Source: Nitrospirota bacterium
Lineage (GTDB): Bacteria > Nitrospirota > UBA9217
Length of the DNA stretch: 64,000 nt
Reading direction: 5' to 3'
Assembly: GCA_963796285.1 (NCBI GenBank)
Contig: CAWCKW010000012.1
Coordinates: forward strand, 64,001-128,000
Shown here: positions 24,653-27,585 of the stretch, piece after piece
How positions within the stretch are numbered: the stretch's first letter is position 1
Layout: each line of letters begins with the position of its first letter
Notes under the pieces: generated by a model
Told to the model about the DNA's origin: nothing
The model's input: only the letters and a program-made list of their open reading frames with translations
The model's database searches: none
Program-made: the position numbers and the translations under genes

Positions 24653-25222
24653 TTGTCCCTCTTGACGATCTTCTTTATCACCTTCGGCCTCATCTTCACC
24701 GCTGAACTCGGCGACAAGACGCAGCTCATGGTCTTTACCCTTGCGCTTCGCTACGGAGGACGGCCGGTCCTTGCCGGGGCGTTCCTTGCCTTCGCGATGC
24801 TGTCGGGAAGCGCCGCGATCGTGGGGAGGGGAGTGGGTGAGCTGTTGTCGCCCGTCCTGATCACGCGCATCTCTGCCTGGGTGTTCATCCTCTTTGGCCT
24901 GTACATGTTGCTGCGCAAGACTGAGGAAGAATCGCCGGAGCAAATCAAACCGTCTGCACGGGCCGGGTTCATCGCGGCCTTCAGTCTGATCGCCATCTCT
25001 GAGATGGGGGACAAGACGCAGATCGCGACGCTGCTCCTGTCCGTAAAATATCAGAGCTTCCTCGCGGTATTCCTCGGCAGTCTTGCCGCCCTCAGCTTCG
25101 CCACGCTGATCGGGATCCTCGTTGCCGGCAGGCTCCATACGTTCATCCCGGCCAGATACATCCGTCCGGCATCCGGCATTCTCTTCGTTCTTCTCGGCAT
25201 CGGCACTCTTGTACTTGCGTGA
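24653..25222 (+). CDS. TMEM165/GDT1 (UPF0016) Mn2+/Ca2+ transporter
   Basis: Two E-x-G-D-K-T-Q motifs (ELGDKTQ, EMGDKTQ). Confidence 0.92.
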   Translation: MSLLTIFFITFGLIFTAELGDKTQLMVFTLALRYGGRPVLAGAFLAFAMLSGSAAIVGRGVGELLSPVLITRISAWVFILFGLYMLLRKTEEESPEQIKPSARAGFIAAFSLIAISEMGDKTQIATLLLSVKYQSFLAVFLGSLAALSFATLIGILVAGRLHTFIPARYIRPASGILFVLLGIGTLVLA

Positions 25223-25341
25223 CCAGCATTTTCCGAACTGATAGTTGTTGAAAATTCAGTTGCCCTTCGCTATACTTTCTTTCAGTCCTTCGGGACAGCG
25301 GGAGCAGATCCCGACCTACGTGAGAATTCTTCGAGGTCATC

Positions 25342-26196
25342 GTGAATTTATCCACACTATTTCAAAAAGCACCTGAAATGAGCGCAGAAGCTGTGAAGGA
25401 GCTGATGAAACAGAAAAAGCCGGGCGAGTATAACCTGATCGATGTTCGCCAGCCGGGCGAATACGAGCAGGGACATATCCCGGGCGCGAAGCTCATCCCC
25501 ATTGCAGAACTGGCGTCACGGGTGGGCGAGATCGATCCTGCAAAACCGACCATCCTGTATTGACAAGCGGGTAATCGCAGCCGGGCTGCTGCGGGAATGC
25601 TCAGGAACGCAGGTCTCACGAACATGTTCAGCATGCACGGCGGCATGAAGGCATGGAAGGGGTTCGTCGCAAGCGGTCCGCCCGATGCCGGCATGGCTTA
25701 TTTCCCCTCTGACTCCAGGCCGGAAGAGCTTATCGCCCTGGCGTGGTCGCTGGAAGAAGGTTCGCGCCGCTTCTATGGCGCTCTGGCCGGATCGCTCCAG
25801 GACCAGGAGGCCATGGCGTTTTTTCAGGGATTAGCAGGCGCCGAAGCAGGTCACGAGGCCATGCTGCTTGCCCTGTATCAGGAGGTAACCAATGACCGCC
25901 GTGTTGCAAAGATTCCCGACTCGCTTTTTTCCGGCATTGTTCCCGGCGAGGTGATGGAGGGGGGGATGAGCGTGGAGCAGGCCCTGGAGTGGACCACGGG
26001 CAAAGGCATCAGCGACATCCTCGATCTTTCCATGGCCCTTGAATCGTATTCCTACGACCTGTATCTCAAGATGGAGCGCGCCCTCACCGATGGAAATGCA
26101 CGGCGCGTGTTCCTAGTCCTGGCCGGGGAGGAGGAAAAACATCTGGAAAGAATGGCCGCGCTTATCGAGAACAGACGATCTCCGGATGCACAGTAA
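25342..26196 (+). CDS. probable selenoprotein: rhodanese (Sec at the catalytic position) fused to a ferritin/rubrerythrin-like domain, 284 aa
   Basis: ORFs 25342..25563 and 25597..26196 are in frame across TGA 25561-25563 and read ILY-U-QAGNRSRAAAGML...HGGMKAW; C-terminal ExxH pairs (EAGH, EEKH). Confidence 0.88.
25576..25593 (+). promoter_or_regulatory. SECIS-like hairpin
   Basis: CGCAGC-CGGGCT-GCTGCG starting 12 nt after the in-frame UGA. Confidence 0.65.
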
Positions 26197-26314
26197 TGTA
26201 AGCCCACTCTTTGCCTCATCCCGTTGGATCCGACAAAGCCTTTCCTCTTGACAAAAACCGCCGCACGACTTAATATTAAACACTTGTTTTAAAGCTAAAG
26301 GATCAAATCCATTT

Positions 26315-26734
26315 ATGGAAAAAACACGTTCCTTCCTGTTTTTGTTCAGCTTTCTGCTCCTGTCTTCCACGTCAGTCATGGCGCAATATCCGGTCATCGA
26401 CGCGGAACAACTGCGGTCATATGTAACCGGAAACAAGAAAGTAATGCTTGTAGACTCGAGGACATCCGAGGAATATCAGCAGGCGCACATCCCCGGCGCC
26501 ATCAATATCATGCCGGACGAGATGAAGACCAAGGCCGCACGTTTGCTGAAGGATAAAACAGCTTCGGTCATTTTTTATTGCAGAGGCATGGGCTGAGGAC
26601 TCAGCCGCATGGCCGCAGGTGCGGCCATTGAGATGGGATACACCTCTATCATGATATATCAGGCAGGCATGCCTGATTGGTTATTGAAAGGTTACCCCGT
26701 GCAAAAGGGCAAGAAGCCGGGGAAATTAAAGTAG
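26315..26734 (+). CDS. probable exported selenoprotein rhodanese (CxxxxU), 139 aa
   Basis: Signal peptide, VDSR..EEY..AHIPGA, FYCRGMG-U-GLSRMAAGAAIEMGYTSIMIYQAGMPDWLLKGYPV; the domain is completed only by reading through TGA 26594-26596 to TAG at 26734. Confidence 0.88.
26600..26632 (+). promoter_or_regulatory. SECIS-like hairpin
   Basis: Lower stem CTCA/TGAG; upper stem ATGGCCGC-AGGT-GCGGCCAT starting 12 nt after the UGA. Confidence 0.8.
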
Positions 26735-26766
26735 TATCAGTTCAATTTTCAGGGGAGCGTCGTTCT

Positions 26767-27585
26767 ATGGCCATCAAAAGGGAAAAATCAAATTATACGA
26801 TCCAGTCAGTTTCGCATGCGCTCGACATTCTGGAATCATTCACCAGGACCGAGGACGAACTCGGCGTGACGGAATTGTCGAAGAGGCTGGGACTGCACAA
26901 GAACAACGTGTTCCGGCTGCTTGCCACGCTTGAGCACCGCGGCTACATCGAACAGAACAGCTCGAGCGAGAACTACCGCCTCGGCCCCAAGACACTCCAG
27001 ATCGGGGCGATCTTCATCGACCAGCGCGAGTGCCGCCGGCAGGCGAGGCCGATCCTCGAGAACCTTATGGCGGCATCGGGAGAGACGGCGGTTGTGGCCG
27101 TCCTGCGCGGGAACAAAGTGATCTATATGGACAGCGTGGAGACGTCCAGGACGGTCCGCGCGACCTCGCGCATCGGCGCCATGCACCCTGCACACTGCAC
27201 CGCAGTCGGCAAAGTGCAGCTTGCGGCCCTGCCGGCTGGTGAGATCGAGCGGTTGTACCCGGAAATGAATTTGACACCGCTTACCGACAAGAGCATCAAG
27301 ACACGAGATGTTCTGCTCAATGAACTGAAAAAGATCACTGAGAAAGGGTATGCGTTCGAGACCGAGGAGGCCGATCTTGACGTGCGGAGCATTGCTGTTC
27401 CGGTCAGGGACTTCTCCCGCAAAGTGATCGGCGCAGTAGGTATTGTCGCGCCGTCGCACCGGCTGACGGAAGAGCTGCTGGAAAAGGGCGATCTGCTATC
27501 CTTGGTGCAGGACGCAGGCAAGGCCATCTCAGTGAAGATGGGATTCATCGCACAAGCGCGGGAACAAGTGATACATTGTACCTGA
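26767..27585 (+). CDS. IclR-family transcriptional regulator
   Basis: IQSVSHALDILE, HTH LGVTELSKRLGLHKNNVFRLLATL, HCTAVGK. Confidence 0.93.
   Translation: MAIKREKSNYTIQSVSHALDILESFTRTEDELGVTELSKRLGLHKNNVFRLLATLEHRGYIEQNSSSENYRLGPKTLQIGAIFIDQRECRRQARPILENLMAASGETAVVAVLRGNKVIYMDSVETSRTVRATSRIGAMHPAHCTAVGKVQLAALPAGEIERLYPEMNLTPLTDKSIKTRDVLLNELKKITEKGYAFETEEADLDVRSIAVPVRDFSRKVIGAVGIVAPSHRLTEELLEKGDLLSLVQDAGKAISVKMGFIAQAREQVIHCT

Follow-up and report, generated by a model that had tools for sequence, protein, structure and literature searches.

A rhodanese gene with a predicted selenocysteine codon five residues after the conserved catalytic cysteine

Within the 64,000-nucleotide stretch of DNA analysed here (the window; C12:64001-128000), a rhodanese gene (C12:90315-90734) carries an in-frame UGA that, on comparison with related sequences, is almost certainly a selenocysteine (Sec) codon. 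The best explanation of the locus, in which we have high confidence, is that it encodes one selenoprotein of 139 residues, here termed the Sec-rhodanese, and not a fragment of 93 residues. The gene is nevertheless recorded nearly everywhere as such a fragment, in at least 82 clusters at 90% identity, and re-annotation would restore a complete, predicted-exported enzyme in many anaerobes. It also provides a clear case of a rhodanese in which Sec occupies a neighbouring position and the catalytic Cys is not replaced. Current understanding is not overturned by this finding, since predictions of rhodanese selenoproteins go back to 2005. The features of the locus are listed in Table 1.

Table 1 Features of the Sec-rhodanese locus (window coordinates)
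Feature	Position	Strand	Remarks
Upstream selenoprotein candidate	25342..26196	+	TGA 25561-25563; rhodanese + rubrerythrin/ferritin-like domain
Promoter-like TTGACA-17-TAATAT	26248..26276	+	10/12 consensus matches; consensus match only; in 118-nt upstream gap
Shine-Dalgarno-like AAGGA	26298..26302	+	12 nt before ATG; inferred from sequence
Predicted selenoprotein ORF	26315..26734	+	139 codons + TAG; single-domain rhodanese
Predicted Sec-type signal peptide	26315..26383	+	Residues 1-23; predicted cleavage after VMA
TGC codon, Cys89	26579..26581	+	Canonical rhodanese catalytic cysteine, active-site loop start
In-frame TGA, predicted to be read as Sec94	26594..26596	+	5 residues after Cys89
Putative bacterial SECIS hairpin	26609..26628	+	Stem 26609-26616/26621-26628, AGGU loop 26617-26620; over codons M-A-A-G-A-A-I
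IclR-family regulator	26767..27585	+	Pfam IclR_C 2.6e-44, HTH_IclR; 32 nt downstream

Reading frame and homologues

From the ATG at 26315, 93 codons lead up to the TGA, which directly follows ...VIFYCRGMG, and beyond it the frame continues for 45 further codons, GLSRMAAGAAIEMGYTSIMIYQAGMPDWLLKGYPVQKGKKPGKLK, to a TAG at 26732-26734. The original prediction had placed the halt of the ORF at this CRGMG-TGA and had taken the sequence behind it, as far as the TAG, for the remainder of a rhodanese. Both statements hold: the frame is open, and Pfam Rhodanese (PF00581) covers residues 30-123 of the read-through protein (65.6 bits, cut-off 22.2), a match that spans the TGA and thereby places it inside the rhodanese domain. 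A terminator-like hairpin inside the ORF (26658-26677) was judged a chance match.

A protein search returned 152 matches at E <= 1e-5, and the following counts are taken from the best 120 of these. Among the matches listed, 33 homologues are full length (32 of 139-156 aa, and one 121-aa form without the N-terminus); 32 of them carry Cys at position 94 (FYCRGxGC) and one carries Trp. The original prediction, that Sec stands at the second and not the first Cys of a CxGxxC loop, agrees with this alignment, in which the UGA falls on the second Cys of C-R-G-x-G-C. A further 82 homologues in the same set are short (86-97 aa), and 81 stop exactly at [FI]YCRGxx; these are uncalled Sec forms. The remaining short homologue, P0073, ends in FYYRGME with Tyr in place of Cys89, and the Cys-Sec pair would therefore not be obligatory if this sequence is real. 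Cys89 is invariant in alignment A1 of the full-length homologues; it also occurs in every short form but one (81 of 82) and in all 45 TGA-form DNAs described below. In the metagenomic homologue P0004, TGG (Trp) is found where others have Sec or Cys; this Trp and the Tyr of P0073 may be sequencing errors or real variants.

DNA of relatives was collected from named genomes, three metagenome contigs, a 401-genome sample of the window's phylum and 18 further regions. A metagenome scan with an alignment of the truncated form used generic patterns, so that only three of its 80 loci were close relatives (L098-L100). The nearest named relatives are Nitrospirota MAGs. Across the best 49 rows from the own-phylum sample (E <= 3.3e-28), a TGA lies within the match in 41 and none does in eight, one of the eight being a 252-aa frame. 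Removal of identical 87-nt stretches left 45 distinct TGA forms and nine Cys forms. The Cys form L033 is frameshifted and was excluded, leaving eight Cys forms in the contrasts below, and the TGA-form locus L028 (probably the same as L214) was filtered out by extra upstream TGAs that break its frame. Apart from the window's phylum, the sources of the 45 DNAs are the isolate Anaeromyxobacter terrae SG22 (L029), one MAG with the label delta proteobacterium and the three metagenome contigs.

Whether the sequence downstream of the TGA is coding in relatives had been named as decisive by the original prediction, and in all 45 distinct TGA-form DNAs the frame is open and conserved as coding. Over the 24 codons past the TGA, mean column entropy across these DNAs is 0.71 at the first codon position, 0.64 at the second and 1.37 at the third, a pattern that we read as the signature of purifying selection on coding sequence. 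A second phylum was sampled with 401 genomes around G401, to which a locus titled Desulfobacterales belongs, and there FYC-x4-U was found in 12 of 12 small TGA-bearing homologues.

Hairpin and selenocysteine machinery

An 8-bp stem with an AGGU loop had been predicted 12 nt after the UGA, and the hairpin AUGGCCGC-AGGU-GCGGCCAU was found at that distance. As a single-sequence fold it is only mildly unusual (76-nt stretch, -31 kcal/mol, z = -2.44; 5 of 200 shuffles equally stable), so its support comes from conservation. The prediction had further called for covariation of the hairpin among relatives and for its presence wherever the UGA is kept. A hairpin with a 4-nt loop lies in the same register in 45 of 45 Sec forms, none of which keeps the UGA without it. 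It overlies the codons x-Ala-Ala-(Gly/Val)-Ala-Ala-x; the conserved Ala-Ala-x-Ala-Ala peptide by itself dictates four of the eight pairs, which leaves the wobble and outer pairs as the informative ones. In alignment A3, 85% of the cells of the in-register 8-bp helix are paired, whereas shuffles reach 76.3% and slid partners 27-59%. The covariation score of the helix is 0.255, versus 0.109 in shuffles, and none of 500 shuffles reached the score of the helix.

The covariation lies at two synonymous sites of the hairpin. The pair formed by two third codon positions (26614 and 26623) is C-G in 36 Sec forms, U-A in six and U-G in one, with two unpaired; this wobble pair is formed in 43 of 45 Sec forms versus two of eight Cys-form genes (Fisher p = 3e-5, ignoring kinship). 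The adjacent outer pair is G-C in 24, C-G in nine, G-U in three, U-A in two, U-G in two and A-U in one, and is unpaired in four. As no more than 24-25 of the 45 form the two outermost pairs, the conserved core of the stem amounts to 5-6 bp. In the loop, 44 of 45 Sec forms have G as the second base (26618 in the window), and the loop codon encodes Gly or Val in 42 of 45, whereas the Cys forms have G, N, T, R, Y or A there. Judged from eight Cys-form DNAs of related sequence, the hairpin appears to be largely lost in Cys forms and kept together with the UGA. The RNA signal would be carried by two synonymous sites and the choice of one loop residue, on an Ala-Ala-Gly/Val-Ala-Ala peptide, and the Sec and Cys forms offer a clean natural contrast for studying SECIS constraint on coding sequence.

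The predicted fold in the second phylum has a hairpin at the corresponding place in 11 of 12 TGA-bearing homologues; in L251, from the same phylum, the hairpin lies one codon further downstream, along with a one-codon insertion. An Rfam search of 25000-27200 at E <= 10 returned no SECIS family and chance matches only, and none of the Rfam families matched the hairpin.

All of selA, selB, selC and selD, the genes by which membership of the Sec system was judged, were found in the genome. On the same contig as the Sec-rhodanese gene, and some 45-55 kb downstream of it, lie selB (369.6 bits, cut-off 242.25; C12:140804-142690), selA (595.4 bits; C12:143175-144557) and a tRNA-SeC called by ARAGORN at C12:134656-134754, the expected place near selAB. 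SelB with Sec-tRNA(Sec) would bind the hairpin past the UGA and so allow Sec to be inserted at codon 94. The selD of this genome carries an in-frame TGA of its own. It was found twice with equal scores (C1:101902-102822 and C8:19066-19986, one in-frame TGA each), and a third, fragmented copy lies at C9:16273-17201; the multiple copies may reflect assembly redundancy, the contamination estimate of the genome being 5%. ARAGORN called tRNA-SeC three times in all, the other two calls (C3:325141-325234 and C12:1201220-1201310) lying away from selAB and being possibly false.

Two readings without selenocysteine must be weighed against this evidence. The UGA could be a true stop, the product then being a 93-residue truncated rhodanese or the gene a pseudogene with a relic frame downstream, and gene callers do annotate it so in the database clusters mentioned above. 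However, truncation would leave the AlphaFold2 model without its last strand and without the helix that follows the active-site loop, the 45 downstream codons are open and bear the marks of purifying selection in the 45 distinct DNAs and likewise in the 12 loci of the second phylum, and the stop codon at this site is always TGA, never TAA or TAG. We regard a true stop as very unlikely. Alternatively, decoding of the UGA could be independent of selenium, with near-cognate tRNAs or a reassigned code supplying Trp or Cys, a reading to which the TGG of P0004 lends some colour. Against it stand the complete Sec system of the genome and a SelB-type hairpin that has been selectively retained only alongside the TGA; reassignment, moreover, does not explain the UGA, because TGA is otherwise the commonest ordinary stop of the genome, closing 762 of 1777 stop-to-stop frames of >=300 codons. 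Selenium-free decoding is therefore very improbable, and decoding as Sec is the reading adopted here.

Fold, export and relation to known rhodanese selenoproteins

The AlphaFold2 model of the read-through protein shows one rhodanese domain behind an N-terminal helix (mean pLDDT 86.9). Its fold matches to rhodaneses have a probability of 1.00; the top structural matches are the single-domain rhodaneses 6mxv, 3ilm and 3nhv, and 1yt8, PspE, YgaP and Sud were also matched. In the loop FYC-RGMG-U, Cys89 directly follows the central strand (84-88), and Sec94 is placed where the next helix (H92-106) starts. Profile searches align Cys89 with the active-site Cys of solved rhodaneses, including 1yt8 domain 2 and BH2092, and in the profile alignment to a canonical rhodanese two loop residues, position 94 among them, appear as an insertion. 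A C-x5-R loop of the arsenate-reductase/Cdc25 type was considered and rejected by eye: Gly95 occupies the sixth place behind Cys89, and no Arg comes after the loop until Arg98.

The N-terminus, MEKTRSFLFLFSFLLLSSTSVMA followed by QY after the predicted cleavage site, has a basic start, a hydrophobic core and a V-M-A site on a rule-of-thumb reading, with a 10-residue Kyte-Doolittle mean of up to 2.94 in the core. This layout fits the signal peptide of the original prediction by hydropathy and the -3/-1 rule, and a small-x-small site was found by regular expression at the matching place in 111 of 115 homologues among the matches listed. Neither a twin-arginine motif nor a lipobox was seen in the N-terminus by eye. 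We infer export via the Sec pathway, by which the signal peptide would direct the chain, still unfolded, through the cytoplasmic membrane; once mature, the protein would have ~116 residues and consist of a single rhodanese domain with Cys89 and Sec94 (C-R-G-M-G-U). In the second phylum, six of 12 orthologues (L235, L239, L240, L247, L251 and L252) look lipoprotein-like, in that their N-terminal hydrophobic stretch closes with a Cys; a strict lipobox was seen by eye in L239 and L251 only.

Rhodanese-type selenoproteins of five forms are distinguished in a 2026 review, cited here in excerpt (PMC13188914): form 1 is UxxS (WP_010941598.1), forms 2 and 4 are UxxG, form 3 is CxU ('LYCAU', NF041203) and form 5 is UxxxxU (TsoB, NF045694), a rhodanese/DsbD fusion. 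Excerpts from older publications refer to 'rhodanese-related sulfurtransferase' selenoproteins and give no motifs there (PMC1088965, PMC1976440, PMC2398784, PMC9312934). Among NCBIfam models, the Sec-rhodanese matches TsoB best (70.6 bits over profile positions 41-160, cut-off 805), followed by LYCAU (55.5 bits, cut-off 115). As both scores fall below cut-off, it belongs to neither model, and the stand-alone, Cys-first form is absent from the NCBIfam models. The Sec-rhodanese is nonetheless of a known kind, sharing the position of its Sec with TsoB. The primary paper on TsoB is reportedly that of Haft and Tolstoy from 2025.

A bona fide TsoB was found in G401 (L254:3141-4868; 575 aa, two TGAs, 1014 bits against the cut-off of 805), with the layout rhodanese, DsbD membrane domain and thioredoxin-like CAPC. 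It is 35% identical to the Sec-rhodanese over 115 residues (E = 3e-17), with FYU-AGLA-U standing opposite FYC-RGMG-U; this stretch is gap-free, and a hairpin also follows the second UGA. The rhodanese domains are thus homologous and equally spaced, and the second Sec of TsoB aligns exactly with Sec94; because this alignment is gap-free, the Sec position is common to the published family. The two nevertheless differ in architecture and in the number of Sec residues. TsoB is a protein of 572-575 residues that includes a DsbD membrane domain, ends in a thioredoxin-like CxxC domain and has Sec at both positions (U-x4-U), whereas the Sec-rhodanese stands alone with its 139 residues and has only the second Sec (C-x4-U). 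The rhodanese domain of TsoB is preceded by an N-terminal hydrophobic segment and is therefore probably extracytoplasmic too. In the window's own genome, no match to TsoB exceeded the cut-off. Roughly 1.6 kb upstream of the TsoB gene of G401 (L254:642-1520) lies a membrane-anchored Cys-type rhodanese with a C-x-G-x-x-C loop, YCSGRTCED.

LYCAU is likewise a small rhodanese that keeps the canonical Cys and has Sec a few residues on, but there Sec stands at +2 (C-x-U) and not at +5 (C-x4-U). Form 1 is a small rhodanese-domain selenoprotein as well, and its UxxS motif is fitted by the U-G-L-S of the Sec-rhodanese; x-L-S follows Sec in 44 of 45 Sec forms. Compared by motif only, the Sec-rhodanese family is a reasonable candidate for form 1, and we consider this identity rather likely because the family is so widespread. 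In reviews, where it appears as a table entry, form 1 is credited with neither a C-x4-U pair nor export, and no description of an exported rhodanese selenoprotein was found in the literature searched. With Cys instead of Sec, the fold and loop recur in Cys-type CxGxxC rhodaneses such as BH2092 from Bacillus halodurans (PDB 3nhv, 3o3w), whose C-x-G-x-x-C sequence, YCWGPAC, aligns gap-free in the profile alignment, the fold match having 26% identity. These structures come from structural genomics, and we know of no functional study of BH2092.

Proposed chemistry and genomic neighbourhood

By analogy with TsoB, Cys89 and Sec94 may form a redox-active selenenylsulfide, a proposal that we put forward tentatively, giving it slightly less than an even chance. 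Cys89 would take up sulfane sulfur as a persulfide, which Sec94 would resolve, or else the pair would act as a thiol/selenol oxidoreductase. Electrons from the cytoplasm would reduce the oxidised Se-S bond again, through a membrane system of the CcdA/DsbD type together with a periplasmic thioredoxin-like protein. The Sec-rhodanese would in this respect amount to the N-terminal U-x4-U domain of TsoB detached from the DsbD module to which it is fused there, and it is because that homologous domain precedes DsbD and thioredoxin modules that the Cys/Sec pair is suggested to cycle with transmembrane electrons. Through TsoB, a stand-alone and predicted periplasmic rhodanese would thus be linked to a DsbD-type electron supply. 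Frames in the genome match the DsbD-membrane and thioredoxin parts of the TsoB profile (candidates by profile match only), and these are possible reductants of the Sec-rhodanese.

The evidence also bears on a different role for Sec94 within a genuine selenoprotein, in which it would not be a redox partner of Cys89. Sec94 would itself hold or pass on the transferred atom, as a perselenide or selenenyl-persulfide, or would tune the loop, and the protein would be a periplasmic carrier of sulfane sulfur or selenium, of the PspE/Sud type, and no oxidoreductase. Position +5 of the rhodanese loop sits in the cradle around the persulfide, which suits such a role, as do the periplasmic single-Cys rhodaneses PspE (2jtq) and Sud (1qxn) among the sequence and fold matches and the LYCAU family, which also has Sec within the loop beside a retained Cys. 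On the other hand, Cys89 is invariant in alignment A1 and position 94 is Cys or Sec except for one Trp among the matches listed, and TsoB joins the homologous two-Sec domain to an electron-transfer module of the DsbD type, which points to redox cycling. We consider a carrier role for Sec94 the main rival reading, though a less likely one. Returning to the selenenylsulfide, a more specific and in our judgement unlikely version is that the periplasmic C-x4-Sec rhodanese serves as a trans-acting counterpart of the TsoB N-terminal domain, with a resolving selenol, and is a persulfide/polysulfide reductase. Sulfane sulfur would pass from polysulfide or thiosulfate to Cys89, Sec94 would expel sulfide by forming the Se-S bond, and a CcdA/DsbD-thioredoxin relay would recycle the enzyme. 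If true, this would be a small, cofactor-free periplasmic reductase, widespread in anaerobic Nitrospirota and the other sampled phylum and hidden by mis-annotation.

The neighbourhoods in both phyla give no clue to a pathway in sulfur or selenium chemistry. In the window's family the order of the block is rph (RNase PH), a GDT1-type transporter, sometimes a gene for a second rhodanese selenoprotein fused to a rubrerythrin-like domain, the Sec-rhodanese, IclR, a PP-loop ATPase and purD. An IclR gene adjoins the Sec-rhodanese orthologue in 11 of 20 annotated loci and is possibly co-transcribed with it; at L187:261-1394, a gene for an IS605 OrfB / Cas12f-like TnpB is inserted at the usual place of IclR. 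In the second phylum, threonine synthase precedes the Sec-rhodanese in seven of 12 loci, and Fur/ZnuA genes lie nearby in three. For multihaem cytochromes, no frame with >=2 CxxCH motifs was found in the 1.5-3 kb flanks of 44 loci.

The upstream selenoprotein candidate differs from the Sec-rhodanese in that Sec would replace the catalytic Cys itself (PTILY-U-QAGNRS, 'UxxG', as in forms 2/4), and in that its product is predicted to be cytoplasmic, having no signal peptide and being fused to its rubrerythrin/ferritin-like domain. A hairpin starts ~11 nt past the UGA of this gene, and a rubrerythrin part also lies upstream in L179, a relative at the level of the same genus. Elsewhere on the contig, two more rhodanese-like frames with one in-frame TGA each (C12:1284841-1285266 and C12:1422368-1422646) may be further Sec-rhodanese paralogues. 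Across the phylum, the rhodanese query matched dozens of open frames of 420-510 aa that contain a single TGA, for example G289:C1:1145521-1145832 and G200:C15:452321-452629; these are probably larger, multi-domain Sec-containing rhodanese fusions.
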